NCBI GenBank assembly: GCA_963770895.1
Contig: CAVYRF010000002.1
Coordinates: forward strand, 2,912,001-2,976,000
DNA from: an uncultured Acidobacteriota bacterium
GTDB taxonomy: Bacteria > Acidobacteriota > Thermoanaerobaculia > Multivoradales > UBA5704
Length of the DNA stretch: 64,000 bases
Direction: 5' to 3'
Shown: piece by piece, positions 17,688 through 64,000 of the stretch
How the letters are laid out: each line of letters starts with the position of its first letter
How positions within the stretch are numbered: the stretch's first letter is position 1
Position numbers and translations under genes: made by a program
Notes under the pieces: model-generated
Database searches by the model: none
The model's input: only the letters and a program-made list of their open reading frames with translations
What the model was told of the DNA's origin: nothing

Positions 17688-17759
17688 CGGCCTGGTCCCT
17701 GGCTGCCACGGCTTCCTGCTAGGATGATCGAGCCCGGCAGGGCGTCAAGGAGGATCTGG

Positions 17760-18896: not shown

Positions 18897-19056
18897 TGGC
18901 TGGCCGGTGTCGGCCCAGCCGGCCGCACCGGGCGGCTCCTGGCTGCTCCGAGCGGCTCCTGGCGGCTCCGGATAGACGAGTGGGGAGCGCGGCGCGTACT
19001 AGATCTGAAGCCGCCTCCCACCGCCCGTCCTCGTCTGGGAGAGGGTCATCCCCACG

Positions 19057-41424: not shown

Positions 41425-42305
41425 CGGTGCCACCGCTCAACCTGGTCGGGCCTGGCAGGAGATCCGCACGACCTCTCGCCGCGCCGGCCTCGTGATCGCC
41501 CTTGCCGCGATCCTGGTGCAGGCTCCCCGTCTCGTCCTCGCCCTGCTCGCCGGCGACCGCCTGCCCGTGGGGCCGGCCGGCGAGCGCGGAAGGAGAGCTT
41601 TTCCTTTCGACGCGGCCAGGCCGTGCGTCTCAAAGCTGACACCGTTGCGAGCCAGGAGTTGTAAAAAACATGCCGGCTCTGCCAGCCGGCAGTGTCCCGG
41701 CACGTGCCGGCAAGCATGTCGGTCGGAATCAGGGCGCCTCCGCCGCCCAGGCCAGCGAGCGGGTTGGCCTTCTGGTCGGTGCCGCAAAGGGTGCCGGCAC
41801 TCTCTGGTGGCACTACGCTCGCGATCGGCACCACCGTGGCCTGCCAAGGTTTCCGCCCAACCGTCCGGGCTGGTAGGGGGGTCGAAATCCGCTGAACTGC
41901 CGCCGAACGATCCGCGCTCCTTCTCCTCCACGCCCCCGCCCTCGGCCTCGCTGCTTCCATCTGCCCGGTATCTGAGAGTGTTCCCGGCGGGCATGCGAAC
42001 CGTCCGTGTGCTCGTCGTGGCTGGGTCGGGACCGACAACCGGCTCTCCCGTCCCGCGAAGGTAACGCCACCCCCACCCTTACCAGACCCGGCATTCCTCC
42101 CTGGGCCTCACCGACTCGGTACACCACCCCAGGGTGGCCGCGAGGCTTGGCCTCTGCCCGATGCGACAGAATGAAGAGTTGCCGATATTTCGATGTCTTT
42201 GACCTGGGCGATGCAGAGCAGGTAGCCTTCGCGGCGAGCCCTTGTCGTTGCTGATCCAGGCCATTCTGGTCGCTCCGTCCGCCGGGTAAGGGGGATGACA
42301 TCCAG

Positions 42306-45300
42306 GTGCCAGCGAACCCCACAGAAGCACTGGTCGCCGATCTGCGAGCCCAGATCGAGGCCGGCGAGGTGCTGGTCATCGCCGGCGCCGGCGTCTCGGT
42401 GGCGGCGACCGCCGAGGGCACGGCGCCAGGCGGTAGCCCCGTCGCTTCGTGGAAGGGCCTGCTGGTGGATGGCATCGAGCGCTCTACGCAGGTGGGATCG
42501 CCTCCGCCTGCGGCGGGCTGGGCGGAGCGGCTCCGGGCCGACCTCGAATCGAAGGATCTTGACGACCTCCTGTCGGTGCCTGAGCGAGTGGCCAGCCGCC
42601 TGGGAGCGCCGAAGGGGGGCGAGTACCGCCGCTGGCTGCGCGAGACGGTCGGCTCCTTGCGAGCCATCGACCGATCGGTGCCGGAGGCGCTGGCCGGGCT
42701 GGGGATGACGATCGCCACCACCAACTACGACGGGCTGCTGGAGGAAGTCACGGGCCGGCCGCCGGTGACCTGGCGGGACGGTACGCGGATGGAACGGGTG
42801 GTGCGCGGCGATGAGGTGGGCATCCTGCATCTCCACGGTCATTGGCAGGACCCAGAGTCGGTGGTGCTGGGCATCCGCAGCTACGAGAAGATCCTTGGCG
42901 ATGCGCCCACCCAGGCGATGCTGAAGGCGGTGCGGTCGCTGCAGACGCTGCTTTTCATCGGCTGCGGCGCCACCCTGGAGGACCCGAACTTCGCGGCGCT
43001 GCTGGCCTGGAGCCGCGGCGTCTTCGCCGGCTCCGAATACCGCCACTTCCGGCTGTGCCGGGACAGCGAGGTGGCGGCCCTCCGTGCCCTCCATGGTCCG
43101 GAGGAGCGTCTGTTCCCGGTTCCCTACGGCCGAGAGCACAGCGATCTGGCGCCGTTCTTGCGGAGCCTGCGGGCTCCGCGGTCGCCGGTGGCGGCACCGT
43201 CCCGGCCGGCGACTGCGGCCTCCTCCGCGGGCGCCGATCCGGTGGTGCCGCGGCTGCCGCCGCCGCGCTACTGCTTCGGTCGCGAGGACGCGGTTGCGCA
43301 GGCCGTGGCCGCGGTCCTCGCCAAGCCGGCGGCGCCGCTAGCGATCCTGGGACCTCCGGGGGTAGGCAAGACGACCGTCGCGGTCACCGCACTGCACGGT
43401 CCACGGGTGGTCAAGCGCTACCGCTCGCGGCGGTTCTTCGTGCGTGCCGATGGGGTCAGCGGGCGCGACGCCCTGGTGGCGGCGGTCGCCTCGGCGATGG
43501 GGCTCGAACCCGGGGCGGGCCTTGAGCAGCGGACCTGGAGCGCGCTGGACCGCGGCGCGGCGCTGCTGGTGATCGACAACGCCGAGACCCCCTGGGATGC
43601 CGATCCGCAGGCGGTCGAAGAGCTGCTCGCACAGCTCGCGGCGGTGCCTGGCCTCGCCCTGGTCGCCACCGTCCGCGGCGACGAGCGCCCCGCGGGACCG
43701 CGATGGACCGAGCCGATCCGGCTACGCCCGCTCGACCCTGCGCCGGCGCGCAGCGCGTTTCTCGCGGTCGCGGGCGAGCGACACCGCTCCGACCCCCATC
43801 TCGACCCGCTGCTCGAAGCCGTCGAGAGGCTGCCGATCGCCATCGACCTGCTCGCCCATCAAGCCGAACCGCTGCCGGGTCTCGCCGAGCTATGGCAGCG
43901 CTGGCAGAGTGAGCGTAGCGCCGTGCTGCGCCGCGCCGGCGGCCGCACCCGCGAGGTCAGCCTTGATGCCTCGGTCGAGCTTTCGCTCCAGAGCCCACGG
44001 ATGACCCAGTGCGGCGAGCGGCTGGCAAGCCTGCTCGCCCAGCTGCCCGGCGGCATTGCCCCTGAGGATCTGGGCGCGTTGTTGGGCGGGGAGGGTGCCA
44101 CCGCAGCAGCCGAGCTACGCAGGACCGGCCTCGCGGCCCCGGACGTAGCCCGGTTGCGCCTGCTGGCTCCCATCCGCGAGGTGCTTCGCCGCCTGCGCCC
44201 GCCACAGCCCGAGGATCATCTGCGGCTGGTCGCCCACTTCCTCGAGCTCGCCCGGCTCGGAAAGCGAGTGGGGGCCGAGGGGGGCGCAGGGGTTGCGCGG
44301 AGGCTGGAGACCGAGCTGGGCAACCTGGAGGCAATCCTTGCGAGCGCCCTGGAGGCCCCCGATCCCGAGCCCGCCATAGCCGCCGCGCTGGATCTCGGCA
44401 GGTTCCAGCGCTTCACCGGACTGGGAGGCTCGGCTCTGCTGGATCAGGCCGCATCGGCAGCCGGATCGGTCCTTCTCCAGGCTCAGTGCCTCCGTGCACG
44501 GGCAGATCTAGCCCTTGCCCGCTCCGACCACGACGGCGCGCGGTCGCGCTACGAGGAGGCCCTGCCGCTCTTCCGCCGGGTGGGCGACGTGCTCGGCGAG
44601 GCCAACTGCATCCAGAGCCTCGGCGACATCGCCCAGCGGCGCTCCGACCACGACGGCGCGCGGTCGCGCTACGAGGAGGCCCTGCCGCTCTACCGCCGGG
44701 TGGGCTCCGTGCTCGGCGAGGCCAACTGCATCCAGAGCCTCGGCGACATCGCCCTGCGGCGCTCCGACCACGATGGCGCGCAGTCGCGCTACGAGGAGGC
44801 CCTGCCGCTCTACCGCCGGGTGGGCGACGTGCTCGGCGAGGCCAACTGCATCCAGAGACTCGGCGACATCGCCCTGCGGCGCTCCGACCACGATGGCGCG
44901 CAGTCGCGCTACGAGGAGGCCCTGCCGCTCTACCGCCGGGTGGGCGACGTGCTCGGCGAGGCCAACTGCATCAAGAGCCTCGGCGACATCGCCCAGCGGC
45001 GCTCCGACCACGACGGCGCGCGGTCGCGCTACGAGGAGGCCCTGCCGCTCTTCCGCCGGGTGGGCGACGTGCTCGGCGAGGCCAACTGCATCCAGAGCCT
45101 CGGCGACATCGCCCTGCGGCGCTCCGACCACGACGGCGCGCGGTCGCGCTACGAGGAGGCCCTGCCGCTCTACCGCCGGGTGGGCTCCGTGCTCGGCGAG
45201 GCCAACTGCATCCAGAGCCTCGGCGACATCGCCCTCGAGCGCTCCGACCACGACGGCGCGCGGTCGCGCTACGAGGAGGCCCTGCCGCTCTTCCGCCGGG

Positions 45301-45614
45301 TGGGCGACGTGCTCGGCGAGGCCAACTGCGTTTTCGGTCTCGGCGATGTCGCGGCTGCCATCGGAGAAGCAGGGATAGGACGTCAGCTGATCGGCCAAGC
45401 GCTTTCGCTCTACCTTGGGATCGCCGAGCCCTATTCGGTCGGTCGGGCACATCGAAGGTTGGCCGAGCTCGCCGCGGACTCGGCATCACGGCAGGAGCAC
45501 CTGGAGGCTGCCCGCCAAGCGTTGGCAGGCATCGGGCGCTTCGATCTCGTAGCGGACCTCGACAGCGATCTCGACGCCGTCGGCGCCAAACCCGAGGGGA
45601 ACGGGGGCGGCTGA
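42306..45614 (+). CDS. SIR2-like - STAND NTPase - TPR protein (NLR/Avs-like)
   Basis: IAGAGVS, TTNYD, HLHG, LFIGCG (SIR2_2); GPPGVGKT, LLVIDNAE (Walker A/B), ERLPIAI; 40-aa TPR repeats. Confidence 0.88.
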   Translation: MPANPTEALVADLRAQIEAGEVLVIAGAGVSVAATAEGTAPGGSPVASWKGLLVDGIERSTQVGSPPPAAGWAERLRADLESKDLDDLLSVPERVASRLGAPKGGEYRRWLRETVGSLRAIDRSVPEALAGLGMTIATTNYDGLLEEVTGRPPVTWRDGTRMERVVRGDEVGILHLHGHWQDPESVVLGIRSYEKILGDAPTQAMLKAVRSLQTLLFIGCGATLEDPNFAALLAWSRGVFAGSEYRHFRLCRDSEVAALRALHGPEERLFPVPYGREHSDLAPFLRSLRAPRSPVAAPSRPATAASSAGADPVVPRLPPPRYCFGREDAVAQAVAAVLAKPAAPLAILGPPGVGKTTVAVTALHGPRVVKRYRSRRFFVRADGVSGRDALVAAVASAMGLEPGAGLEQRTWSALDRGAALLVIDNAETPWDADPQAVEELLAQLAAVPGLALVATVRGDERPAGPRWTEPIRLRPLDPAPARSAFLAVAGERHRSDPHLDPLLEAVERLPIAIDLLAHQAEPLPGLAELWQRWQSERSAVLRRAGGRTREVSLDASVELSLQSPRMTQCGERLASLLAQLPGGIAPEDLGALLGGEGATAAAELRRTGLAAPDVARLRLLAPIREVLRRLRPPQPEDHLRLVAHFLELARLGKRVGAEGGAGVARRLETELGNLEAILASALEAPDPEPAIAAALDLGRFQRFTGLGGSALLDQAASAAGSVLLQAQCLRARADLALARSDHDGARSRYEEALPLFRRVGDVLGEANCIQSLGDIAQRRSDHDGARSRYEEALPLYRRVGSVLGEANCIQSLGDIALRRSDHDGAQSRYEEALPLYRRVGDVLGEANCIQRLGDIALRRSDHDGAQSRYEEALPLYRRVGDVLGEANCIKSLGDIAQRRSDHDGARSRYEEALPLFRRVGDVLGEANCIQSLGDIALRRSDHDGARSRYEEALPLYRRVGSVLGEANCIQSLGDIALERSDHDGARSRYEEALPLFRRVGDVLGEANCVFGLGDVAAAIGEAGIGRQLIGQALSLYLGIAEPYSVGRAHRRLAELAADSASRQEHLEAARQALAGIGRFDLVADLDSDLDAVGAKPEGNGGG
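44520..45348 (+). repeat. Seven near-identical 120-bp tandem repeats encoding TPR units
   Basis: gctccgaccacga... recurs at 44521, 44641, 44761, 44881, 45001, 45121, 45241. Confidence 0.97.
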
Positions 45615-50282: not shown

Positions 50283-50286
<4 letters not shown>

Positions 50287-50830
50287 CGTGATGAGCGTGA
50301 TGAGCCCGGAGCCGGGCCGGGCACCGGGCGCTCGGTCCCGCACTGTCCGGTGGACAGGTAGGTGCCGCCCAACATCGTGCCGCAGACCTTGATGGCGGCC
50401 AGGCCGGCGGCCCCCTTCTCATAGGGATCGGCGTCGAGCACGGCGAAGTCGGCGAACTTGCCGGGCTCGATGCTGCCCACCTTGGCGTCCAGGCGCAGCA
50501 CGAAGGCCGCGTCGATGGTGATGGCACGCAGGGCCTGGTCCAGGGTCAGGCGTTCGTCGGGGCCGAAGACCTTGGCGCCGGTAGCGTAGCCTTGCCGGTT
50601 GGCGGCGATCCAGGCGGCGAGCAGGGGCTGCGGCACGGCGATGGGAAAATCCGAATGGAGGGCCGTCGGCACCCCGGCGCTCACCAGGGAGCGCAAGCGC
50701 GCCGTCGTGTCGGAGCGGTCCGCGCCGATCAGGCTCTCGTTGATCTGGGCGCGCAGGTAGACATAGTAGATGTTGACGCTGGCGAGGTCGCCCAAGGCCC
50801 GCAGGCGGCGGGCCTGGTCCGGCCGCGAGG
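50283..50830 (-). pseudogene. Amidohydrolase_3 family C-terminal fragment
   Basis: ALHSDFPI, ERLTLDQALRAITIDAA, GSIEPGKFADFAVL; the N-terminal majority of the family is missing. Confidence 0.72.
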
Positions 50831-51005
50831 GAGACGAAGGATGCGCTGCACAGCCAAGAGTCGACAAGGCGCCGCCGCGACAAGGCCCATACCACCCCTC
50901 CCTCATGCTCAAACCTGTGTTCGCATCCGCAGCGCGACTACGCTAAGTCATGCAGGTACCTCGGTCAAGAAGTCGGGCCGGCACCGCCGGCACCGCGCCA
51001 CCTCA

Positions 51006-52621: not shown

Positions 52622-54301
52622 TCAGCGGCCGCCGCCGCCGCCAGGCGGGCTGGGGCCGTGCTGTTGCAGCAGCGCGGCCAGGCCGCGGCGGGCGTCGATG
52701 GAGTCCGGGTGGTAGGCGAGAGTGCGGCGCAGCTCGGCGATGGCGAGATCGGGGCGGCCGACGTCGTCGAGGGCCATCGCCAGGACGATGCGGCCGCGCT
52801 CGTCCGCCGGTTCGAGCGCCAGGGCATCGGTCAGCGGCGCCAGGGCGGCGCCCGGCTGTCCCCAGGCGCGCAGGGCGTTGCCCAGCGCGATGCGGGGGTA
52901 GGCAAGGCGCGGCGCCTGCGCGATGGCGGCGCGGTAGCGGGCGAGCGCCCCGGCGCGATCGCCCAGCGCCCGCAGCTCCTCGGCGACGTTGGCGTCGGCA
53001 AGGAAGCTCTCCTCGACCGTGAGCGAGTGCTGGAAGAGGGTGAGATTGTCGTGCCAGTAGCGCACCTGCTGCCGGGTCATTGCCGCCAGGGTGAGCAGCA
53101 CGGCCGCGGCGCCGGCGGCCGGCAGCGCCTGGCGCCAGGGCGGCTGCAGCAGCCGGCGAGCGAGCGCCGCCGCCGACCAGCTCACGGCGACCGCCAGTCC
53201 GATCGACGGCAGGTAGGTGTAGCGGTCGGCCATCGACTGCCAGCCGACCTGCAGGATGCCGCAGACCGGCAGCAGCGTGATGCCATACCAGAGCCAGCCG
53301 ACCGCCAGGTAGGGGGCGCGCCGCGCGACCGGCGGCGCCAATACCACCGCGGTGATCGCCGCCAGCAGCGCCGCCGCCGCCGCCGCCCGCCCCGCCGGCA
53401 CCTCCTGGAACGGATAGAACACCGCCAGGTGCGCCGGGTAGAAGGTCTTCCCCAGGTAGGCCACATAGGAGGTCGCGGCGTTCGCCAGGCGCAGCGGCAG
53501 ACTGGCGGTGGCGCCCGACGCCAGGGGGCCCGATTGGGTCACCAGCGCGATCACCCCGGCGGCAAGGGCGAGCGCCGCGAGCGGCGCCTTTTCGGCCAGC
53601 AGGAAGCGCGCCGATCGACCGTCCTCCGCCCCTGCCCGCCGCCAGCGCCGCAACGGCCAGACGTCGAGCAGCAGCAGCACCAGCGGCAGGGTGACGGCCA
53701 TCGGTTTGGCCATCAGGCTGGCGGCGAACAGCGCCGCGACCGGCAGGTAGCGGCCGGCGGACGGCCGGCGGGTGTAGCGCAGCCAGACCGCCAGGGTGAG
53801 CATCCAGCAGAGGCCGCAGAGCACGTCCTTGCGCTCGGCGATCCAGGCCACCGATTCGACGCGCAGGGGGTGCACCGCATAGAGGGCGGCGGCGGCGGCG
53901 CTGCGCCAGGGGGCGCTGGTCATGCGGCGCCAGACCTCGTACACCAGCAGCACGGTGAGCAGGTGGAGCAGCAGGCTGGTCAGGTGGTGCCAGCGCGGGT
54001 CCAGCCCGAACAGCTGGACGTCGAGCATGTGGGAGGCCAGGGTGAGCGGGTGCCAGTTGTCGGCCACCTTGGCGGTGAGCGCCCAGCGCAGCCCGGCGGC
54101 GCTCAATCCGCCGCGGACGTACGGGTTGGCCAGGACGTATTGCGGGTCGTCGAAGTTGACGAAGCCGTCGCGCAGGACCGGCAGGAAGGCGATGACCGTC
54201 AGCAGCGCCAGGCCCAGCGGCAGGTAGACGGCCGGGCGCGGCGCGTCCGCTGCCGGCGATCGGCTTGGCTGCGGGCTGGAGGCGGGCTGCATGGGCTCCA
54301 T
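52622..54301 (-). CDS. TMTC-like GT-C membrane glycosyltransferase with C-terminal TPR
   Basis: FVNFDD..YV, NWHPLT, HPLRVESVAWIAERKD, ADRYTYLP, TPR tail. Confidence 0.82.
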   Translation of the reverse strand: MEPMQPASSPQPSRSPAADAPRPAVYLPLGLALLTVIAFLPVLRDGFVNFDDPQYVLANPYVRGGLSAAGLRWALTAKVADNWHPLTLASHMLDVQLFGLDPRWHHLTSLLLHLLTVLLVYEVWRRMTSAPWRSAAAAALYAVHPLRVESVAWIAERKDVLCGLCWMLTLAVWLRYTRRPSAGRYLPVAALFAASLMAKPMAVTLPLVLLLLDVWPLRRWRRAGAEDGRSARFLLAEKAPLAALALAAGVIALVTQSGPLASGATASLPLRLANAATSYVAYLGKTFYPAHLAVFYPFQEVPAGRAAAAAALLAAITAVVLAPPVARRAPYLAVGWLWYGITLLPVCGILQVGWQSMADRYTYLPSIGLAVAVSWSAAALARRLLQPPWRQALPAAGAAAVLLTLAAMTRQQVRYWHDNLTLFQHSLTVEESFLADANVAEELRALGDRAGALARYRAAIAQAPRLAYPRIALGNALRAWGQPGAALAPLTDALALEPADERGRIVLAMALDDVGRPDLAIAELRRTLAYHPDSIDARRGLAALLQQHGPSPPGGGGGR

Positions 54302-54329
54302 CGGGCGTGCGAACGGCGCCTGGGCGGCG

Positions 54330-55235
54330 CTACTTGGCGGCCGCCCGGTTGCAGGTCTCCTCGCGCAGCTTCACCCAGTTGCCGTTGACGTTGACCTGAA
54401 AGACATGCAGGAAGCGGGAGGCGCTGCGCCGTGTGTAGGTGTCGCGCGCCTCGAACTGGACGCCGAAGCGGTGCCCCGACCCCTCGAAGCTCAGCTTTTC
54501 CGCGATCCAACCGGGCGTGGCCTCGGCGATGCTGCCCTCCTGGTTGTCCACCAGCACCGAGGCGATCGCCTGCGCCACCGGGTCCCAGCCCCACTGGCTG
54601 ATCGAGCTGTAGGGCACGGGGTTGGTGGCCGACTTGGGCTCCGTATAGGCGGATTGCACCCAGAAGCCGTCCAGCTGCCAGGCAAAGGCGACGGTCGCCG
54701 CGGTGGGGTGCTCGGGGCCCGGACCGTAGCTGTGGCCGGTGCAGTTCCATTCGCCGTCGAACCACTTGACGTCCGCCAGGATCTTATTGGGCACCGCCGG
54801 CTTGGGCGGCGGCGGCGGCGGCTTGGCCGGCGCCGTGGCGGTCTTGCCCTTGCCCGCATCCTTCGACTTCTTGTCCTTGCCGGACGCCGGAGGGGTGGCC
54901 GGCGCCGCCGGCGTCTCGGCCGCGGGCGTGGTCGTCGCGGTCGCGGGCGGCGTCTCGGCGGAGCCGCTGCCTGCCGCCGGCGACGCCCGATCGCTGCCGG
55001 CGCCGGCTGCCGGCGCTGCTGGCGCCGAACCGCTGCCGGCTGCCGCGCCCTGATCCTGGCCGCCCGCCGCCGGCGAGGCGCTGGCTCCCGTCGCTCCCGT
55101 CGTTGCGCCGCTGGCTGGCGCCACCGGCGCCGCCTGGGCCGCCGAGCCGTTACCGGCCTGGCCGGCCCTGGCGGCTGGCAGGGCGAGGACGGCGGCGGCG
55201 ACGACCCCGGCCGCGACGGCGAGGCGGCGGCGCAT
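54330..55235 (-). CDS. Secreted protein, Ala/Pro-rich linker and DUF1579-like beta domain
   Basis: Signal peptide MRRRLAVAAG..ARA; C-terminal WFDGEWNC.G...WQLDGFW...GWDP; ATG overlaps lanC stop (TGATG). Confidence 0.65.
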   Translation of the reverse strand: MRRRLAVAAGVVAAAVLALPAARAGQAGNGSAAQAAPVAPASGATTGATGASASPAAGGQDQGAAAGSGSAPAAPAAGAGSDRASPAAGSGSAETPPATATTTPAAETPAAPATPPASGKDKKSKDAGKGKTATAPAKPPPPPPKPAVPNKILADVKWFDGEWNCTGHSYGPGPEHPTAATVAFAWQLDGFWVQSAYTEPKSATNPVPYSSISQWGWDPVAQAIASVLVDNQEGSIAEATPGWIAEKLSFEGSGHRFGVQFEARDTYTRRSASRFLHVFQVNVNGNWVKLREETCNRAAAK

Positions 55236-56680
55236 CAACCGGTCACCAGGGGATCGGTGACGGCCGACAGCAGCATCACCCGGTCCCACGCGGGCTCGAA
55301 CGAGCAGAGGCCGCCGAGCAACGCCAGACCGATGCCGGTGGCGCCTTCGAGAAAGCCCGGCTCGTCGCGCCAGTTCGGTTCCGAGGTGGTGTCCGGCATC
55401 TCGAACGACTGGTAGCCGGCGACCCCCTTGCCGGGACGGCGATGCGCCAGCGTCCGCTCGAACCAGAAACGGCTGACTTCGCGCAGGCGGGGATTGCCGG
55501 TTTCCTGGTAGAAGCGATTGAACAGGTGGGCGAGCCCGGCCGCGCCGTGGCAGAGGCCGGCGTCGCGGACTCCCGCCTGGTCGGTCGGGCGCGCTGCGGC
55601 GTCCAGCACCATGTCGGTCGCAAACTTCTCCCAGGCTGGTTCACCGCAGGCGCGGGCGGCTACCAGCAGCGCGGCGGCGATGCCGGGATCGCCGTAGCAC
55701 CAGGCCACGCGCGAGCGCCGACTTTCCACCCCGTCCGCCAGGGCGGTGCCGAACCAGGACTCCTCGCCGGCCGGCAGGCGCTGCTGTAGCAGCCAGCTGA
55801 CGGCGCCGGCGGTCAGGTCGCGAGCCCGGCGCGCGACCACCGCGGCGCGCTCCGCCAGCCGTGCCTGCTCTTGCGGCGCCCCCGCCGCGGCCCCGGCGGC
55901 CGCCATCCGGCCGGTCGCCGCCGCGACCGCCGACAGGGTGGCGATGGCGCCCGGCACCCCGTGCGCCATACCCAGGTTGTAATAGCCGTCCTTGTAGATC
56001 TCCCGCTGCCAGTCGGGCAGCAGCTCGGGAGAGGTGTGCCAGGTCACGCCCTCGGGCTTGCGGCGGGCGGTTTCGTCCAGGCGGTCGACCAGCCGCTCGA
56101 CGCACGCCAGGGCGCTGGCGCGCGGCAAGCGCTCCAGGACGTAGACGCCAAAGCCGCTCAGCCCGCGGATCAGGTCGTAGTCACCGGTCCAGGGCGTGTG
56201 CTCAAGGAAGCTGGTCAACGCGCCGTCGATTTCGCCCAGCGGGTCGTCGCCGTCGCCGGCCTCACCGTCCGCCGCGGCATTCTGCGCCGCCGCCGCCGCC
56301 GCCGGCTCCGGGGCGGCGTCCGCCGCCTCGTCGTCGACATCGGCAAAGCGATCGCTGTACAGGTGTTGGGCGGTCCACGCCACGCCGGTGAAGCCGCCGT
56401 ACAGGTCGGGCGGCAGGGGCGTCGCGGCCAGCGCGTCGGTGGCGGAGTCCAGGAGGTTGCCGGCGCGCTCCTGGTCGGAGGCCGTCGCGCGGCCGCCGCG
56501 CGTCCGGTAGGCGTAGAACAGCGCCTGCCCCGACCTGCCGGAGGCCAGGGAGGGGTGGTCGCCTGTATCGCCCTCGTAGCGGGGCGGCACCGGCTTGACG
56601 AGCGCTTCGGCGATCTCGGCAACCGACTGCCAGCACTCTTCGGCCAACGGTCCATCCAGAATGGGTTCCCAGGTCTTCAT
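55235..56680 (-). CDS. lanC: Stand-alone lanthionine synthetase C (LanC-like cyclase)
   Basis: YDLIRGLSG, NLGMAHGVPG, AWCYGDPG, GLCHGAAG (Zn ligands Cys/Cys/His), GFLEGATGIGL. Confidence 0.9.
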   Translation of the reverse strand: MKTWEPILDGPLAEECWQSVAEIAEALVKPVPPRYEGDTGDHPSLASGRSGQALFYAYRTRGGRATASDQERAGNLLDSATDALAATPLPPDLYGGFTGVAWTAQHLYSDRFADVDDEAADAAPEPAAAAAAQNAAADGEAGDGDDPLGEIDGALTSFLEHTPWTGDYDLIRGLSGFGVYVLERLPRASALACVERLVDRLDETARRKPEGVTWHTSPELLPDWQREIYKDGYYNLGMAHGVPGAIATLSAVAAATGRMAAAGAAAGAPQEQARLAERAAVVARRARDLTAGAVSWLLQQRLPAGEESWFGTALADGVESRRSRVAWCYGDPGIAAALLVAARACGEPAWEKFATDMVLDAAARPTDQAGVRDAGLCHGAAGLAHLFNRFYQETGNPRLREVSRFWFERTLAHRRPGKGVAGYQSFEMPDTTSEPNWRDEPGFLEGATGIGLALLGGLCSFEPAWDRVMLLSAVTDPLVTG

Positions 56681-56739
56681 GGCGTATTTGTATCAGCTTC
56701 TCCGCGGCGCCAGGCAAGAACCGGCTACAGTAGACGGCT

Positions 56740-58263
56740 ATGAAGGCGCCCTCTTATTACGTGCCGGTCATCGCCCTCGGCGCCCTGTCGCTGCTCGCCG
56801 CGAGCGCCGCGCCTTCCACCCCCGCCGCGGCGCCGGATCTGCCGCCGCTCGCGCCGCTGCCGGCGCCGCTCGCCAGGCGGATGCCCGACCTGGTGCAGAC
56901 GGCGGAGCGCTATCGCGGCCTGTCGCTGGTGCGGCGCGTGCCGTGGGGGGTGATGTCCGAAGGCGACCTGGCCCGCGAGGTGGCCGACGACTTCCGCCAG
57001 GATCTGCCGCCGGAGCGGCTGGCCGCGGTCGAGCTGAGCCTGAAGACGTTCGGCCTGATCCCCGAGGTGATGGATCTGAAGACCTACTATCCGCGGCTGC
57101 TGACCAGCGAGATCGCGGGCTTCTACGATTCGCACCGCAAGGTGCTGGCGCTGGTCGATCACCAGGGGGGCCTGTTCGGCCAGGACGCGGTGCGTCAGTT
57201 CGGCGCCGACACGGTGCACCAGATGGAGGACGGACTGCTGGCGCACGAGCTGACCCATGCCCTGCAGGACCAGCACTTCGATCTCGACCGCCTGGACGAC
57301 CCCGACCCGATGTCGGACAGCGGCGTCGCCCACCTGGCGCTGATCGAAGGCGACGCGTCGATCGTCATGCTCGACGCCCTGGTGCAGGTGCCGATCGAAA
57401 ACGTCCCTGAAGCGCCCGCCGTGCTGGCGAAGTTCTTCGGCGCCGCGAGCGGCGACACGCCGGGGGCAGGCGGCGCCGGTCTCCCCGGCGAGGCGGAGAT
57501 GGCGGACGCGCCGCCCTGGCTGCGCGACATGCTGCTGTTCAGCTACACCCAGGGCGCCGCCTTCTGCCTCGACGTGCGGCGGCGGGGCGGCCAGAGGCTG
57601 CTCGACTACGCCTTCGGCAACGATCCGCCGCGCTCGTCGGAGCAGATCCTGCATCCCGAGAAGTGGTACGGGCACCGCGACGACCCGGTGGTGATCGTGT
57701 GGCCCGAGTTGAGCGCCGCGCTGCCCGGCTACGCCAAGGCGGCCGAAGGGCAGCTGGGCGAGGAAGGCATCCGGGTGCTGCTCAAGACCGCTCTGCACGA
57801 TGCGGCGGCGGCCGATACGGCGGCCGCCGGCTGGGGCGGCGACCGCTTTGCCGTCTACCTTGCCGCCACCGGCGGCAGCGGCGCCAGCGGCGCGGCCGGC
57901 TCTCCCGGCGCATCATCGGACGCCAAGGCAGGCGCCGCCGCCGCGGATGCCGGCACGGCGGGCGTCACCGGGCGGCTGCTGGCATGGATCACCGATTGGG
58001 ACACCGCCCAGGACGCGACGGAGTTCCAGGCCGCCGCCGGGCGGCTGGGCAGCGACTGGACCGTCGTCCGCAGCGGCGACCGGCGGGTGGCCGTGCTGCG
58101 CGGCCAGGTCCCGGCGGCGGCGCGTGCCGGCGTCCTGGCCGCCCTGGCCGGCGCCCGCGCCGAGCGGCCGCAGAACCGCGATCTGGACCTGGCCCACCTG
58201 CCGCCCGTGCCACCGCTGCCACACGTGCCACCGGCGCCGCCGCTGCCGCCGGTCAGGCGGTGA
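56740..58263 (+). CDS. Secreted zincin-like protein (HExxH)
   Basis: Signal peptide; AGFYD, LAHELTHALQDQHF, ALIEGDA, Y..G..F, PP.SSEQILHPEK, AAAGWGGD. Confidence 0.75.
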   Translation: MKAPSYYVPVIALGALSLLAASAAPSTPAAAPDLPPLAPLPAPLARRMPDLVQTAERYRGLSLVRRVPWGVMSEGDLAREVADDFRQDLPPERLAAVELSLKTFGLIPEVMDLKTYYPRLLTSEIAGFYDSHRKVLALVDHQGGLFGQDAVRQFGADTVHQMEDGLLAHELTHALQDQHFDLDRLDDPDPMSDSGVAHLALIEGDASIVMLDALVQVPIENVPEAPAVLAKFFGAASGDTPGAGGAGLPGEAEMADAPPWLRDMLLFSYTQGAAFCLDVRRRGGQRLLDYAFGNDPPRSSEQILHPEKWYGHRDDPVVIVWPELSAALPGYAKAAEGQLGEEGIRVLLKTALHDAAAADTAAAGWGGDRFAVYLAATGGSGASGAAGSPGASSDAKAGAAAADAGTAGVTGRLLAWITDWDTAQDATEFQAAAGRLGSDWTVVRSGDRRVAVLRGQVPAAARAGVLAALAGARAERPQNRDLDLAHLPPVPPLPHVPPAPPLPPVRR

Positions 58264-60568
58264 GCTCGGCGGTGGCGGGGACCGCCGGCTCGATCTGGGC
58301 GTCCACCAGGGCGCGATAGACGCCGCCCTGCGCCATCAGGGCGCCATGGTCGCCGCGCTCGACGATGCGCCCATGCTCCATGACCAGGATGAGATCGGCG
58401 TGGCGCACCGTGCTCAGGCGGTGGGCGATGACGATGCGCGTCGAGCGCAGCGTCGCCAGGCTCTGCTGCACCGCCGCTTCGGTCACGGCGTCGAGCGCGC
58501 TGGTCGCTTCGTCCAGGATCAGCACCTTGGGCCGGTGCACCAGGGCGCGCGCCAGGGCGAGGCGCTGGCGCTGGCCGCCGGAGAGGGAGGCGCCGCCGTC
58601 CGCCAGGACGCTTTCGTAGCCCATCGGCATGGCCTGGATGTCGTCGTGGATATGCGCCATGCGCGCCGCTTCGATGACGCGCGACAGCGGCAGCGTGGGG
58701 TCGTTGAGCGCGATGTTGCTGCGGATGCTGAGGCCGAACAGGAAGGAGCTCTGGGCGACGAAGCCCAGCTGGCTGCGCAGCCAGCGCAGGTCCAGGTCGG
58801 CCAGGTCGAGCCCGTCGTACAGGATGCGTCCGCTTTCGGGGGTGTAGAGGCCGGCGAGCAGGCCGGCGAGCGTCGACTTGCCCGAACCCGAGGAGCCGAC
58901 CACCGCCACCAGCTGGCCGGGCAGCAGGTCGACCGAGGCTTCCGACACCACCGGCGGCGTCAACGGCGAGTAGTGGAACGACACCCCGTCGAGGGTGACG
59001 CGGCCGCGCAGCGCCGACGGCCGCTGGCGCGCCAGCTGCTCCTGCTCGCGCGGTGTTTCCAGCACGTCGTTCAGGCGGTCCAGGTAGCTGCCCAGCAGCT
59101 GCATCTGCGTGCCGGTCTGCACCAGGGTGGTCAGCGGCGTGAGGAAGCCGGAAGCCAGGGCGGAGAGCGCCAGCATGGTGCCCAGCGTCAGGTCGCCGCG
59201 CATCACCAGCACGGCGCCATAGATCAGCACCAGCAGCGGCGACAGCGTCCCCATCGCGTCGAGCAGCGAGCTGATGCTCGCGTCCAGGCGGCCGCGGTCG
59301 AGCGACACGTTCAGCTCCTTGACGAAGAGGTGGGCGCAGCGGTCCACCGCGCGGTCTTCGGCGCCGCTCGCCTTGAGAGTTTCGATCCCCTGCAGCACCT
59401 GCACCTGGTAGCCGCGCGAATCGGCCTGCGTCTGCAGCGACTCCGACATGAGGTCGCGCTGGCGGCGCCGGGTCACCAGGAAGGCGATCACGCGCAGGGC
59501 GCCCAACCCCGCGACCAGCAGTCCCATGCGCAGGTCGGCGACCACCAGGAATACCAGGTAGAGGACCACCATGACGCCGTCGAAGATGCCCGAGATGGCG
59601 TTCGAGGTGAGGATCTCGCGGATGGTCGAGTTGCTGTTGAGCCGCATCAGCAGGTCGCCGGCCGAGCGCTGCTGAAAAAACAGGTAGGGCAGGTGCACCA
59701 GGTGGTCCAGGAACTGCAGCGTCATGCGGGCGTCCAGCCGGGTGCGCAGGTGGAGCAGCAGGAACGAGCGCACCAGTGTCGCCAGCAGCTTGAACCCCAC
59801 CAGGCCGGCGCAGCCGACGCTGAGCACCAGCAGCAGGTGCTGGTCGCTGCGCGGCACCACGCGGTCGACCAGCAGGCCGGTCAGGATCGGCACCGCCAGC
59901 GAGAACACCTGGATGATCACCGAGGTGGTCAGGATCTGCGCCATCAGCCCCGATTCGCCGAGCACGTCGCGCACCTGCCGCCATACGGCATGCCGCTTGT
60001 CGGCCGACGGTGCAAAATCCTCGGTGGTTTCGAAGCTGACCGCCACGCCGGTGAAGGCGCGGTCCAGCTCCTGGCGCGACACCAGGCGCCGGCCGCCGCC
60101 CGGATCGACCACCCAGGCGCCGCGATGGTCCATGCGCTCGAACACCACGAAGTGATTGAACCGCCAGTGCAGGATCGAGGCGGGGTCGAGGAAGCGCAGG
60201 GCGTCGATGTCGCGGATCTTGATGCCGCGCCCGCGCAGCCCGTATTGCTGCGCGGTTTCCACCAGCGTCAGCGCGTCGGTGCCGAGGCGGCTGAACCCCA
60301 TGGCCGTACGCAGCTCGTCGAGCGGCACCGACTTGCCGAAATAGCCCAGCACCATGCCCAGGCAGGCGGGGCCGCAGTCGGTCGCCGCGGTCTGCTGGAT
60401 CTGCGGGATGCGGCGCCCGCGCCTGCCCAGGCGCAGCCCGCGCAGGGCGGGAAACCGCTGCGACAGGGAGGGGCCGGACGGTGGCGGACCTGCCGCGGGC
60501 TTGGCCGCGGCGGGGGTCGGGGTCGAGCCGGGGGTCGGGGTCGGCGGATCGAGTGGCGGTGTGGGCAT
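58253..60568 (-). CDS. Peptidase C39-containing ABC transporter (PCAT/LanT)
   Basis: QQTAATDCGPACL, ILHWRFNHFVV, TM domain, GSSGSGKS, LSGGQRQR, LDEATSALD, IAHRLST. Confidence 0.93.
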   Translation of the reverse strand: MPTPPLDPPTPTPGSTPTPAAAKPAAGPPPSGPSLSQRFPALRGLRLGRRGRRIPQIQQTAATDCGPACLGMVLGYFGKSVPLDELRTAMGFSRLGTDALTLVETAQQYGLRGRGIKIRDIDALRFLDPASILHWRFNHFVVFERMDHRGAWVVDPGGGRRLVSRQELDRAFTGVAVSFETTEDFAPSADKRHAVWRQVRDVLGESGLMAQILTTSVIIQVFSLAVPILTGLLVDRVVPRSDQHLLLVLSVGCAGLVGFKLLATLVRSFLLLHLRTRLDARMTLQFLDHLVHLPYLFFQQRSAGDLLMRLNSNSTIREILTSNAISGIFDGVMVVLYLVFLVVADLRMGLLVAGLGALRVIAFLVTRRRQRDLMSESLQTQADSRGYQVQVLQGIETLKASGAEDRAVDRCAHLFVKELNVSLDRGRLDASISSLLDAMGTLSPLLVLIYGAVLVMRGDLTLGTMLALSALASGFLTPLTTLVQTGTQMQLLGSYLDRLNDVLETPREQEQLARQRPSALRGRVTLDGVSFHYSPLTPPVVSEASVDLLPGQLVAVVGSSGSGKSTLAGLLAGLYTPESGRILYDGLDLADLDLRWLRSQLGFVAQSSFLFGLSIRSNIALNDPTLPLSRVIEAARMAHIHDDIQAMPMGYESVLADGGASLSGGQRQRLALARALVHRPKVLILDEATSALDAVTEAAVQQSLATLRSTRIVIAHRLSTVRHADLILVMEHGRIVERGDHGALMAQGGVYRALVDAQIEPAVPATAELTA

Positions 60569-62562
60569 CAGCGGGAGCCGTTCTTGAAAATTGCCTTGAG
60601 GCCGGGCACCAGGGTGACCAGGATCTTTTCGGAGCGGACTTCGACCTCGGCATTGCCGTGCATGCCGTTGTGGAAGCGGTAGGTGCGCCCCTCGGCGGTG
60701 AAGGTGGGCCGCGGCAGGGCGGCCTTCAGGATGACCACCGGTCCGGTGAGCTGCACCGTGTCGCTGATCTCGGCGCCCAGGTAGCGCTTTGCTTCGCTGG
60801 GTCCGACCACCTCTTCGCCGACCGATTCGACGGTGAGCTTCTGGTAGGCATAGCGGTAGCCGGCGATCTCGAAGCGGATGGGCATGCCGCGCCGGACCTG
60901 GGGGCGAAATTCGCCGGGCAGCAGGACGACGACCGTCGGCCGGTCCTGATCCCGCACGATCGACAGCACCAGCTCGCCGGCGTTGAGGTATTGGCCGGGG
61001 CGCACGCGCACGTCGCTCGCCACGCCGGCGGAGGGCGCCCGCAAGATGCGCTCGCCCAGCCGCGTCGAGGCCAGCTGGCGCTGGGTGCGCAAGCCGATCA
61101 GCGCCTGCTCGGCGCCGGTGTCGGAAGGATCGCGCAGGCGGTTGAGCAGCTGCAGGTCGAACTCCTGGTCGAGGCGCGCCAGCTCGGCGGCCTCCTGGGC
61201 CTGGTGCAGCCGGATGAGCGGCTGGCCGGCGCGCACCCGTTCCCCCGGAGTCACGTCGACCGCGGTCACGGTGCCTCCCGATTCCGCGGTCACGTCGTCG
61301 CGGGTGCCCAGCCACACGACGCCGATCCCGGAGGCGTATTCCTTGATGTGCGCCACCGTGGCGAACGCCAGCGACGCGGCCAGGACGGCGAGCAGGGTCC
61401 AGTAGGTCCAGCGCGTCCACGCCGGCGAGATGCGCAGCGGGTCGTTGGGCTCGTCGAGCGTCTGGTAGCGCTCCAGCGCTTCGCGGCGGAACAGGGCGTC
61501 GTCGCCCAGCACCTCTTCGGGGCGCGGCGGTGGCAGGAAGGGCGCCGCCGGCGCCGCCAGGCGCTCCAGCAGGTCGAGCTGCGCGACGCCGAACTCTGCT
61601 TCGCGCGCCGACCGCACGACCACCAGCACGGCGAGCACGCGGCCTTCGTCGTCGCGCACCGGCGCGGCCATCAGCCGCTCGGAGCCGTCGCCTTCCGGGT
61701 CGTCGGCTTCGCGGTCGTAGCGGGCGTCGCGGCCCGACCGCGCCACGATCAGGCCGATGCCGCTGCGCAGCACGAAGCTGGCGATGCCGACGGCGGCGCT
61801 GTCGCGGCGCTCGCTGCCGGTGGCGCGGTCGCGCGTCCATAGGGTGTCGTCGCGCGGGTCGTACAGCAGGCAGTAGGCGCGCTGCGCGTCCACCGCTTCC
61901 CGCGCCGCCTCGGCGAGCACTTCCGAGCGTTCGCCCAGCCCTGCCACCACGGCCAGCTGGCGCAGGACCTCGGCGATTTCGAAGCGCGGTTGCAGGCGGG
62001 GGGCCGCGTGGGCCTGTCCGTCGCCGCCGGCGTTGCCGTCGGCGCCGTCGGCGGCGGCGACCGCGGCGGCGTGGCGCGCCTGGTACAGGCGCACGGCGTT
62101 GCCGATCAGCGCCGCCAGCTCGTCGGGCGACGGCGAGCGCTGGCTGAGGTAGTAGATGCGATCTTCGGCGATCAGGTCCTGGAACAGCAGCGGGTCGGGC
62201 CCCGCCGCGGCGACGATATGGAGCGGCGCGAGGTTGGTGGCGGCGGGGACCGTGGACGGGCCGGCGGCGTGCGCCGGGGCGCCCCCTGGCGACTCCTCCG
62301 CGGGATACTGATCGGCGATGAGCTGCCGCGCTTCCTCGCCGGAGTAGCGCTCTCCCAGGCAGACCACGGCGACCTGGCGGTCGCCGGCCAGCCGGTACGC
62401 CGCCGGCGGATCGGCCGCGGCAACCACCTCGATGCCGCGCGCCAGGCGCCCCAGGCGCGCCCGCAGCGCTTCGGCGGCGTCGCGCTCGAACCCCACCAGG
62501 AGCACCACGGGAGGTTCACCGGTGGGGGAGAAGTGATGGATGGAGGCGAGGGCGTCAGACAT
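60568..62562 (-). CDS. Pseudo-receiver - GAF - HlyD membrane-fusion adaptor
   Basis: Degenerate REC-like N-terminus, GAF (LLYD...GIA..V...D.RY...D....LMAAPV...G.VLAVL), LFRREAL + TM, lipoyl-like VTA..GGTV..V.V.PG.RV, LRAP..G, GMHG.AEV. Confidence 0.8.
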   Translation of the reverse strand: MSDALASIHHFSPTGEPPVVLLVGFERDAAEALRARLGRLARGIEVVAAADPPAAYRLAGDRQVAVVCLGERYSGEEARQLIADQYPAEESPGGAPAHAAGPSTVPAATNLAPLHIVAAAGPDPLLFQDLIAEDRIYYLSQRSPSPDELAALIGNAVRLYQARHAAAVAAADGADGNAGGDGQAHAAPRLQPRFEIAEVLRQLAVVAGLGERSEVLAEAAREAVDAQRAYCLLYDPRDDTLWTRDRATGSERRDSAAVGIASFVLRSGIGLIVARSGRDARYDREADDPEGDGSERLMAAPVRDDEGRVLAVLVVVRSAREAEFGVAQLDLLERLAAPAAPFLPPPRPEEVLGDDALFRREALERYQTLDEPNDPLRISPAWTRWTYWTLLAVLAASLAFATVAHIKEYASGIGVVWLGTRDDVTAESGGTVTAVDVTPGERVRAGQPLIRLHQAQEAAELARLDQEFDLQLLNRLRDPSDTGAEQALIGLRTQRQLASTRLGERILRAPSAGVASDVRVRPGQYLNAGELVLSIVRDQDRPTVVVLLPGEFRPQVRRGMPIRFEIAGYRYAYQKLTVESVGEEVVGPSEAKRYLGAEISDTVQLTGPVVILKAALPRPTFTAEGRTYRFHNGMHGNAEVEVRSEKILVTLVPGLKAIFKNGSR

Positions 62563-62690
62563 GGTGGAGCGCCGGGCAGGGGCTGGCGGCAGCCGTCGCC
62601 GCAGTGGCGGCGACGGCATCGGCCGTGCGGCGGCGGCGCGGCACGCGGTGCTGCCGTGCCGCTTTGCGCACCCTGGTAGAGTAAAGTCGA

Positions 62691-63737
62691 ATGGCCATGC
62701 TTCCCGTTGAACGCCCCAGGTTTGCCAGATCGGTCGCCCCAGCGCTGTTGCGGCTGGTGACGGCGGGCGGTGGCGCGCTGCTGCTCAGTGTGGCCGGCTG
62801 TTCACGCCCGGTTGGGCTCGCCGCCGGGCCCGCTGGCCAACCCCATGATTCTGCCACGTTTTCGCCCTCCGCTGCCAGGCCGCGGCCGGCGGCGGCAGCG
62901 GCTTCGCCCATGTCTTTGAGTGCGTCCGGGGCCGCGGCGGGAGCCGCCGCGCCGGCCGGCGGCGGCGGTGCGCTCCAGGCGTCGGCGGGCCGGCAGGCGG
63001 GTTTCGTCGGTGTCGTGCTGGCGCGCCAGGCCATCACCGTGGCGGCGGAGGCGGACGGCCGGCTGGCCACGATCGCGGTGCGCGCCGGCGACACGGTCCA
63101 TCGCGGGCAGGAGCTGGCGACGGTTTCGACCGAGGAGATGAGCAACGAGCTGGTGGTCGTTCAGGCGACGGTGAGCGCGGCGCGCAGCGACGAGCGCCGC
63201 GCCGAGCTGGAGGTCGAGCGCGCCAAGGACCACATGGCGCGCCGCCAGCTGCACCCCGAGCTCTACTCGGACGAGGACCTGGCGTCGTCGCGCAACGCCT
63301 ACCAGGAAGCGGGGGTGGCGCTCGACAGCGCCAAGGCGCGCGTCGACGAGGAGGTGGGCCACCTGCGCCAGCTGCAGACGCGGCTGCAGCACGCGGTGCT
63401 GCGGGCGCCGATCGACGGCCGGGTGGCGCTGCGCTACCTGGATGCAGGCGCGCTGGTGCGGGCGGGCGGGCCGGTGGTGCGGCTGATCAGCGCCAACGAT
63501 TTCATGTTGCGCTTCGCCGTGCCGCCCGAGCAGGCGGCCGCGATCCACAAGGGGCAGGGCATCGAAGTGCGCCTGGATTCGCTCCCCCTGACGCTGCCCG
63601 GCCGCGTGTCGCAGGTGACGCCGCGCATCGATCCCGCGTCGCAGATGGTGTTCATCGAAGCCGATCTGACGGTGCCCGGCGATTGGGCGGGCCGGCTCGA
63701 AGACGGCCTGTCCGGCCGCGTCACCGTGCACGGCTGA
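62691..63737 (+). CDS. Efflux RND-type periplasmic adaptor (MFP)
   Basis: Lipobox-like VAGC, V.A..DGRL..I.V..GD.V..GQ.L, coiled coil, LRAPIDGRV, GRVSQV.P.IDP. Confidence 0.87.
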   Translation: MAMLPVERPRFARSVAPALLRLVTAGGGALLLSVAGCSRPVGLAAGPAGQPHDSATFSPSAARPRPAAAAASPMSLSASGAAAGAAAPAGGGGALQASAGRQAGFVGVVLARQAITVAAEADGRLATIAVRAGDTVHRGQELATVSTEEMSNELVVVQATVSAARSDERRAELEVERAKDHMARRQLHPELYSDEDLASSRNAYQEAGVALDSAKARVDEEVGHLRQLQTRLQHAVLRAPIDGRVALRYLDAGALVRAGGPVVRLISANDFMLRFAVPPEQAAAIHKGQGIEVRLDSLPLTLPGRVSQVTPRIDPASQMVFIEADLTVPGDWAGRLEDGLSGRVTVHG

Positions 63738-63770
63738 AGCCCCGGCGCGGCGTGCACCCGGGGCTCGGCA

Positions 63771-64000
63771 CTAGCCGGCCGCGGGCGGCGCCTGCCCAGG
63801 CTCGCGGACGGTCACCCGCAGCGATGCCACGCGGGTGCGCTGCATCTCCAGCACTTCCAGGGTGATCGGTCCCAGCTCCACGCGGTCGCCCACCTCGGGG
63901 TTGCGGCCCAGCTCCGAAAAGACGACGCCGCCGATGGTGTCCTCGTCGCGGTCGCTCAGCTCCAGCCCCAGAGCCTCTTCCAGCTCTTCGATCAGCATGC
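63771..64000 (-). CDS. Hemolysin/CorC-family protein, C-terminal transporter-associated domain (partial)
   Basis: IEELEE.LG..L...DEDTIGGVVFSELGRNPEVGD. Confidence 0.82.
   Translation of the reverse strand, partial: MLIEELEEALGLELSDRDEDTIGGVVFSELGRNPEVGDRVELGPITLEVLEMQRTRVASLRVTVREPGQAPPAAG

Follow-up and report, generated by a model that had tools for sequence, protein, structure and literature searches.

A probable export node and one lone cyclase of an unclustered class I lanthipeptide system in an uncultured acidobacterium

We analysed a 64,000-nucleotide stretch of an uncultured acidobacterial genome (the window; C2:2912001-2976000 of genome G000, 8.16 Mb in three contigs, 71% G+C, 95% complete) that encodes, near its end, a stand-alone LanC-type lanthionine cyclase, a LanT-type C39-ABC exporter (PCAT) and two adaptors (Table 1). 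Comparison of this locus with the remainder of the genome and with 40 relatives, for which all counts are lower bounds, makes it probable that the locus is the export node, together with one cyclase, of a class I lanthipeptide system whose genes lie unclustered across the genome. Neither a LanB dehydratase nor a precursor is found at the locus, which would be explained by the genome-wide scatter of precursors and by a single, distant LanB.

The scatter is seen in a family of peptides with one leader type. Its sole member in the window is encoded at 9779, 45 kb away, with no leader peptide found within 54330-63737. In this 9779 peptide, the leader is a double-glycine one of the class I L1a type, and the core of 18 residues includes three Ser/Thr and two Cys; leader positions -4, -7 and -12 are hydrophobic, which we take to fit the usual double-glycine pattern. 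Among 78 related LanC loci, found with a LanC alignment as query (the single protein gave no relative), a small open reading frame (ORF) directly after LanC recurs in four loci lacking LanB and carries a leader like that of the 9779 peptide, with the consensus MKK..KL.L.RETLR.L...L...AGG. Precursors in two clusters with LanB, LanC and PCAT (L097 and L102) bear the same leader type.

We built a profile from seven of these leaders and searched 108,811 six-frame segments of the genome in three rounds (E<=0.001). Matches rose from 18 to 61 to 82, with none on a reversed control set in any round, and an independent genome search with a 21-leader alignment returned at least 86 matches (150 of 386 candidates scored). 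The 9779 peptide was recovered by both (E=1.3e-9 and E=4.6e-12, respectively). The 82 peptides are spread over every one of the three contigs, 66 of them singly and the others in five pairs and two triplets, which makes 73 loci; 2 lie less than 10 kb and 15 less than 50 kb from any LanC, LanB or PCAT gene. Their cores, with a median of 27.5 residues, contain 16% Cys, 15% Thr and 8% Ser, with two or more Cys and two or more Ser/Thr in 81 of the 82. All cores are distinct, with a median pairwise identity of 0.22, compared to 0.38 for the leaders. Upstream of the precursors, the Shine-Dalgarno sequence AAAGGAG is enriched 33-fold; such Shine-Dalgarno 7-mers were the only enriched sequences, and no shared promoter motif was found upstream of the 82 genes. 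A shared sigma-54 promoter was rejected, the strict -24/-12 pattern being present in just 1 of 82. The position of the 9779 peptide is not conserved: the end of the orthologous histidine kinase gene in G001, G003 and G005 has no leader peptide beside it.

Family searches of the whole genome with Pfam profiles returned two matches each to Lant_dehydr_N and Lant_dehydr_C, none of them in the 64-kb window. A single gene (C2:5180050-5183583, 1,177 amino acids), 2.2 Mb from the window, has both LanB domains; it is convergent with a gene for a 536-residue LanC, with chorismate synthase and RNase II genes adjoining, and the second Lant_dehydr_C match is a lone C-domain. The 14 LanC-domain matches comprise nine lone LanCs, two LanM, one RamC-type LanKC and one kinase-LanC (two matches). 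Five lone-LanC loci other than that of the window (six LanC genes, with one tandem pair) adjoin a leader peptide, and the cores of two of these peptides lack cysteine; neither the window LanC nor the LanB-linked LanC has one alongside. Nine C39 matches correspond to three PCATs and to six long frames of 1,211-1,661 amino acids. The two PCATs encoded outside the window are far less like the cluster-borne PCATs described below, one being 37% identical to the window's and the other having missed the 1e-120 threshold. A sequence-only reading of the window had noted that dehydratase and precursor were missing from the locus, with the only double-glycine leader peptide of the window some 45 kb off, and had proposed a dispersed system in which class I enzymes serve scattered precursors by prochlorosin-like logic. 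Family and leader searches agree with the former, and the latter is supported by 82-86 peptides at 73 loci, a LanB 2.2 Mb off and an exporter 58-60% identical to cluster-borne ones. The further precursors and the LanB for which that reading had suggested a genome search were thus both found, the LanB in one full copy.

Relatives contain what appear to be compact counterparts of this system. Among the 78 LanC loci, LanB is present in 41 (usually adjoining LanC), PCAT in 17, the gene for a secreted HExxH protein that also neighbours the window LanC in 10, and one or more leader peptides in 28 (47 peptides in total). Five loci (L070, L079, L097, L102 and L103) combine LanC and a full LanB with a PCAT 52-58% identical to the window's, and in four of these a GAF and/or HlyD-type gene lies next to the PCAT gene. 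Compact clusters with GAF-HlyD, PCAT, LanC and LanB genes are found in G027 (two loci), G015 and G030; leader peptides occur in three of the four, with six and one in G027, one in G030 and none at E<=0.01 in G015. The PCATs inside the LanB/LanC clusters of these three genomes are 58-60% identical to the window's, and in all four clusters a homologue of the window's GAF-HlyD adaptor (32-42% identity) directly precedes PCAT. G015 also encodes, divergently from the GAF-HlyD gene as in the window, a 39% identical homologue of the second adaptor, and L097 has another (37%). Because both carry it, the two-adaptor module is a conserved unit of such lanthipeptide clusters.

The distribution of exporter and leaders across genomes points the same way. 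Of the 21 relatives in which three or more leaders matched, 20 have a PCAT that shares at least 57% identity with that of the window, compared to 2 of the 19 with none or one, a comparison uncorrected for kinship among the genomes. Leader matches number 1-59 per genome in the genus, 0-52 across the family and 0-44 in the order's other families, with few in the genomes that hold compact clusters (7 in G027, 7 in G015 and 1 in G030). Matches to the window LanC and to the leaders fall in largely the same relatives, and most LanC-bearing relatives have a single strong full-length LanB match, compared to up to 20 window-LanC matches per genome.

The exporter itself has all parts of a PCAT. It matches the Pfam C39 peptidase (101.7 bits), six-helix ABC_membrane (123.9 bits) and ABC_tran ATPase (109.8 bits) families, and the catalytic Cys and His reported earlier from the sequence are present in the motifs DCG (64) and HFVV (139), with Walker A at 558 and LSGGQ at 662. 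It aligns over its full length with PCAT1 of Clostridium thermocellum (4ry2; E=3.5e-101, residues 57-752) and with ComA (8hf7; E=8.4e-97). Whereas these two are adaptor-free exporters of monoderms, the window PCAT has a Pro-rich N-terminal extension of about 50 amino acids and is accompanied by two periplasmic adaptors, as expected for a diderm. Its best NCBIfam match, TIGR03796, scored 656.7 bits, below the equivalog cut-off of 853.3, so that it was rejected as an NHLP bacteriocin exporter equivalog. NHLP/Nif11 export likewise pairs a C39-ABC exporter (TIGR03796) with an HlyD-family adaptor (TIGR03794), but the window's adaptor reaches just 27.7 against the latter's cut-off of 156.2 and has a GAF domain, and no second, peptidase-less ABC subunit is encoded alongside. 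Nif11 and NHLP models gave no match at E<=1 to the four peptides scanned.

The first adaptor contains GAF_2 at 233-359 and HlyD_3 at 526-617 (47.8 bits; cut-off 22.2), preceded by an N-terminal region of about 230 amino acids that matches no family. Hydrophobic windows at 274-275 and 405-408 place a membrane span near residue 405, and a match to TIGR01843 in two stretches (59.7 bits) falls under the cut-off of 208.65. The sequence-only reading had described an HlyD fused to the exporter; the adaptor exists, but as a separate gene that overlaps the exporter gene by one base, and its fusion partner is the GAF domain. The shared base belongs to the TGA stop of the adaptor and the ATG start of PCAT, and the two are therefore translationally coupled. 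The second adaptor, divergent from the GAF-HlyD gene and anticipated as a further adaptor, scored 119.8 bits for TIGR01730, above the cut-off of 94.9. Its next neighbour, on the opposite strand, is CorC; because the DNA past the window end encodes CorC, GroES, GroEL and RHS genes, this adaptor has no transporter gene of its own. A conventional lanA-lanB pair just beyond the window, which would have spoken for an ordinary cluster, was looked for in this DNA and none was found.

The window LanC scored 101.5 bits for PF05147 (cut-off 23.2), covering profile positions 5-350, and has no signal peptide. The zinc ligands described as intact are indeed present: the motifs AHG239, WCYG327 and CHG377 are unchanged in 11 aligned orthologues, and we presume that, as in NisC, they provide the Cys/Cys/His zinc ligands and the catalytic His. 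In a maximum-likelihood tree of 97 LanC sequences (quick search, with SH-aLRT support only and no bootstrap), it falls in a clade of 19 rows (support 96) in which no locus has LanB, and the genome's LanB-linked LanC falls in another (20 rows, support 98). Among the 18 other loci of the window-LanC clade, ten have the HExxH gene divergent from LanC, and five have one or two leader peptides directly downstream of LanC without LanB in the locus. Because of these five loci, the clade appears to act within the same peptide family.

Nevertheless, the position of the LanC next to the exporter may be incidental, because 8 of the 10 HExxH-LanC pairs among the 78 related loci have no PCAT within 10 kb; the two that do are L026 and L028, and LanC-PCAT adjacency was seen only in the window's nearest relatives. 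At PCAT-less HExxH-LanC loci (L031, L032, L040 and L059), CorC, GAF histidine kinase and DUF2383 genes stand where the exporter module does in the window, so it was probably in the lineage of the window itself that the module came to lie between CorC and the HExxH gene. The LanC and PCAT genes are also separate transcription units with the HExxH gene between them, and the cluster-borne PCATs of other families accompany LanCs of other clades. These observations favour an alternative in which the exporter serves the scattered peptides but the adjacent LanC is unconnected with it, an inherited paralogue beside the HExxH gene that is idle, acts on few peptides or performs another thiol addition. 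We regard this as unlikely, though the most serious of the alternatives, since a precursor with the same leader stands right after LanC in five of the 18 other clade loci and LanC and leader matches largely co-occur in the same relatives. What is unsupported is the earlier picture of a single hub in which one machinery serves the scattered precursors: LanC and PCAT are separate units, adjacent in the nearest relatives alone, the genome has nine lone LanCs and three PCATs, and the HExxH gene also occurs in leader-less relatives. The comparison of synteny suggested with it showed compact GAF-HlyD-PCAT-LanC-LanB clusters as well as the eight PCAT-less HExxH-LanC loci.

A further alternative is a LanCL-like LanC, a type that the earlier reading had also named; it would attach small thiols to proteins, at dehydroamino acids or other electrophiles, and so serve in housekeeping repair. 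The conserved chromosomal context with housekeeping-type neighbours, the lack of LanB and precursor beside the gene, and weak matches to LANCL1 structures (E=2e-4 to 5e-4) would suit this, but bacterial structures are closer (8byk, E=2e-16; NisC, 7e-7), the nearest relatives outside the clade are LanB-linked cyclases, and the clade includes the five loci with precursors in cis. A genome wholly devoid of LanB combined with such a LanC, which the earlier reading had named as refuting it, was checked for and not found. We consider this alternative very improbable.

Several further observations weigh against the locus being an export node and cyclase of a dispersed class I system. The window LanC lacks an adjoining precursor, whereas five other lone-LanC loci of the genome have one, and it is not co-transcribed with the exporter. 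The 9779 peptide reaches 19.9 bits (E=5.9e-4) with NF038153 (lant_leader_L1a, 'class I lanthipeptide'), just below the 22-bit cut-off, although the L102 peptide (23.1 bits) exceeds it, as do three of the five peptides that match at E<=0.01 in this genome. One related peptide also matches the radical-SAM leader model TIGR04149 for RiPPs (peptides made on ribosomes and modified after translation; E=3e-4, under the cut-off), and a B12 radical-SAM gene adjoins LanC in L102; the leader type is therefore not exclusive to lanthipeptides. Any of the two LanM, the LanKC and the kinase-LanC of the genome could mature some of the peptides, one of which is encoded 3.7 kb from a LanM. Finally, in G012 (93% complete, 910 contigs), where the leaders gave 35 matches, the search found no close PCAT.

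Part of this evidence would suit an alternative in which the peptides are not class I lanthipeptides here, the PCAT instead exporting plain disulfide peptides or products of class II-IV or other enzymes, with the lone LanCs uninvolved. No Lan enzyme lies inside 10 kb of 80 of the 82 peptides, the leader overlaps weakly with the radical-SAM RiPP model, and other transporters recur near the precursors: within 4 kb on either side of the 73 loci, MacB_PCD/FtsX permeases (47 paralogues genome-wide) are encoded at 9, where about 3.4 would be expected, and C39-less ABC exporters (10 paralogues) at 5, where about 0.7 would be. These MacB-type permeases and plain ABC exporters are possible immunity or export partners of the precursors. 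Yet the LanB/LanC clusters of relatives hold the same leader and core style, mini-loci with LanC and precursor but no LanB are common, and the Thr and Cys contents of the cores (15% and 16%) are like those of clustered LanA genes, which makes this alternative quite improbable. The largest group of 'regulator' neighbours, at 7 precursor loci, turned out to combine histidine kinases with sigma-54 activators, which had been grouped through domains in common, and we claim no enrichment for it.

Under the preferred interpretation of a dispersed class I system, precursors from scattered genes would be dehydrated in trans by the single full LanB, and their thioether rings closed by one of the nine lone LanCs, the window LanC among them. 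The C39 domain of the window PCAT would cut the precursors after the Gly-Gly of the common leader, and the transporter would export the cores via the GAF-HlyD and lipoprotein adaptors, presumably by way of an outer-membrane partner whose gene lies elsewhere; export may be gated by the cytoplasmic GAF region. The likely substrates are the roughly 82-86 leader-bearing peptides with hypervariable Cys/Thr-rich cores, including the 9779 peptide. The catalytic steps, the action in trans and the pairing of LanCs with peptides are what we infer from the genes, motifs, counts, homology and neighbourhoods observed. Because LanB-less mini-loci of LanC and precursor are frequent and relatives have one LanB and many LanCs, our data suggest that the cyclase paralogues carry the specificity.

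More tentatively, and with somewhat less than even confidence, we propose that this family of soil Thermoanaerobaculia has evolved a class I counterpart of the prochlorosin system. Its genomes would each contain some 20-86 fast-turning-over precursors, one LanB acting in trans, up to nine LanCs each with its own ring pattern and one GAF-gated, two-adaptor PCAT, and diversity would come from the cyclase and not from the dehydratase. The arrangement would have arisen when a compact cluster, of the kind that sister families retain, broke up. If so, combinatorial one-leader-many-cores biosynthesis, so far known from class II systems in marine cyanobacteria, would have a separate origin, with class I enzymes, in a phylum that is abundant in soil. 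Whether ring topology is set by LanC paralogues could then be tested in a natural system, which would also supply peptide engineering with a promiscuous pair of LanB and PCAT whose natural substrates number in the dozens; the intact clusters of sister families would allow a before-and-after comparison of biosynthetic cluster dispersal. Mining for class I lanthipeptides goes by neighbourhood, seeking LanB and LanC with precursors within a few genes, and dispersed systems of this kind escape it because the genes for precursors, dehydratase, cyclases and exporter are separated from one another.

A single enzyme that acts on scattered precursors is familiar from class II, in the prochlorosins of marine picocyanobacteria (PMC7268733, PMC10783134, PMC9872173); the distant precursors are reported to escape neighbourhood-based mining (Walker et al., PMC7268733), and SyncM to have up to 79 substrates (PMC9872173). 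The present system shares with the prochlorosins tens of precursors with a conserved double-glycine leader and hypervariable cores, mostly encoded far from the enzyme gene, and PCAT-type export. The likeness would be one of logic only: prochlorosins are made by one bifunctional LanM (ProcM) from precursors with Nif11/NHLP leaders, whereas separate LanB and LanC paralogues and an L1a leader are found here, in soil Acidobacteriota. Class I lanthipeptides with double-glycine leaders have been described in Gram-negative bacteria, namely Ped15 of Pedobacter lusitanus and the viridisins of Thalassomonas viridans, whose genes are reported to form compact operons (PMC9680876). Those systems likewise have separate LanB and LanC, several LanAs with one double-glycine leader and Cys/Thr-rich cores, and leaders here match NF038153; but two or three, or a handful, of LanAs lie by LanB/LanC there, whereas the genome described here has a single LanB, nine lone LanCs and 82-86 precursors spread over 73 loci. 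Class II and class III clusters of coral-microbiome Acidobacteriota, one of them from Thermoanaerobaculia, have been characterized, and in the part of the article available they are not the present system (PMC13083261). Full-text searches of literature other than subscription papers and the Pedobacter papers (Caetano 2020; Bothwell 2021) returned no account of a class I system dispersed in this way and having tens of precursors, nor of numerous lone LanCs in Acidobacteriota.

The second Lant_dehydr_N match of the genome belongs to a 925-residue protein (C2:4507910-4510687; L140:2910-5687) with the LanB N-terminal (glutamylation-type) domain alone, encoded beside a non-ribosomal peptide synthetase gene; we take it to resemble the small-LanB enzymes that add amino acids to peptides. 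A very divergent pair of lone LanC-like genes on a long tree branch (G000:C2:2707653-2709298, L105; G000:C1:1579909-1581510, L106) is followed by peptides with a related leader (..K.LRI..ETLLPL..) and cores that contain no cysteine and hence could not form lanthionine. The one long C39 frame of six that was examined (L011:5734-9858, equivalent to window positions 67734-71858) encodes an RHS-repeat protein with a weak C39-like domain near its N-terminus. In G024, a relative of 9.9 Mb in which leaders gave 24 matches and LanC 20, the LanB N-terminal profile is matched most strongly by five adjacent pieces that together cover most of it (G024:C3:1392860-1394854), as might result from a broken gene, from indels in the assembly or from great divergence of this copy; a 907-residue frame on C9 of this genome also matches both ends of the profile.

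The secreted HExxH protein noted in the earlier reading is present, with its HELTH motif at 169 and hydrophobic N-terminus, and is by this motif a putative metallopeptidase of an uncharacterized family. It matched no Pfam family; a partial NCBIfam match to the Hvo_1808 surface protein and weak matches of its orthologues to DUF6782 all fall under the cut-off, a protein atlas gave DUF8230 as a lead, and a search of solved structures by sequence gave no match at E<=1. An AlphaFold2 model built from 11 orthologues (mean predicted local distance difference test score 75) had a single fold match below E=0.001, the uncharacterized putative hydrolase 3cmn (E=4.5e-4), with matches to M1, M30 and collagenase folds at E>0.08. 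Of the 24 genomes of the family, 21 have an orthologue, among them G011, G014 and G021, three genomes that lack leader matches and each have two or three distant LanC-like genes, none adjoining the HExxH gene. A role as a dedicated lanthipeptide protease is thus unsupported. The protein may trim exported peptides, but because its orthologues occur in relatives without these leaders it is probably a bystander, a neighbour by descent.

The region's start at 54330 belongs to a 319-residue secreted protein that the sequence-only reading had left unmentioned; the five genes it did name are all present. This protein has an Ala/Pro-rich linker and a C-terminal domain, matches no Pfam or NCBIfam family (atlas lead DUF1579) and was found in 3 of the 78 related LanC loci. 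It is probably unrelated to the lanthipeptide system and a neighbour by descent. Its start codon is uncertain, because the ORF overlaps the 3' end of LanC.

Gene limits (Table 1) were set from ORF lists and a heuristic based on third-position G+C, with no gene finder, and families were assigned with Pfam and NCBIfam profiles. Neither LanB nor LanA stands beside LanC, so that the locus at 54330-63737 is not in itself a class I lanthipeptide cluster. The HExxH gene is divergent from LanC, with 59 bases between them, and convergent with PCAT, their 3' ends overlapping by 11 bases. A scan of 54000-64000 found no promoter-like sites and one terminator-like site, compared to 2.1 expected in shuffles.

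Table 1. Genes of the LanC-exporter locus and the leader-bearing peptide of the window, with window coordinates
Feature	Position	Strand	Basis
Secreted 319-aa protein	54330..55289	-	ORF, hydrophobic N-terminus; no family
Stand-alone LanC-type lanthionine cyclase, 481 aa	55235..56680	-	PF05147, E=4.7e-29
Secreted HExxH protein, 507 aa	56740..58263	+	HELTH at 169, hydrophobic N-terminus
PCAT (C39-ABC exporter, LanT-type), 771 aa	58253..60568	-	Pfam C39, ABC_membrane, ABC_tran
GAF-HlyD adaptor, 683 aa	60568..62619	-	GAF_2 + HlyD_3
Second adaptor, 348-aa lipoprotein	62691..63737	+	TIGR01730 above cut-off; VAGC lipobox at 34
Leader-bearing precursor peptide, 51 aa	9779..9934	+	ORF, leader hidden Markov model

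The contigs carrying the nearest homologues of the window LanC are labelled as Thermoanaerobaculia or Acidobacteriota metagenome bins, and the whole window is syntenic with the same-genus genome G003. In that genome (L024 and L025, joined; 17463-19351), about 1.9 kb of extra DNA with two overlapping ORF calls, missing from the window, lies between the HExxH gene and the exporter. An alpha/beta-hydrolase gene follows directly downstream of LanC in six related loci (L026:11490-12386; G003 included) and is absent after the window LanC (55235), where the gene for the 319-residue protein follows instead.

Elsewhere in the window, a 209-residue ORF (50283-50912, minus strand) aligns solely with the last third of the Amidohydro_3 profile (positions 317-468 of 472) and may be a truncated gene or have a mis-set start. 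A 1,119-residue SIR2_2-AAA-TPR protein is encoded at 42255-45614 (plus strand), and a DUF4276 protein gene (10039-10680, minus strand) lies directly after the 9779 precursor; both are of kinds that we take to be frequent in anti-phage defence islands.

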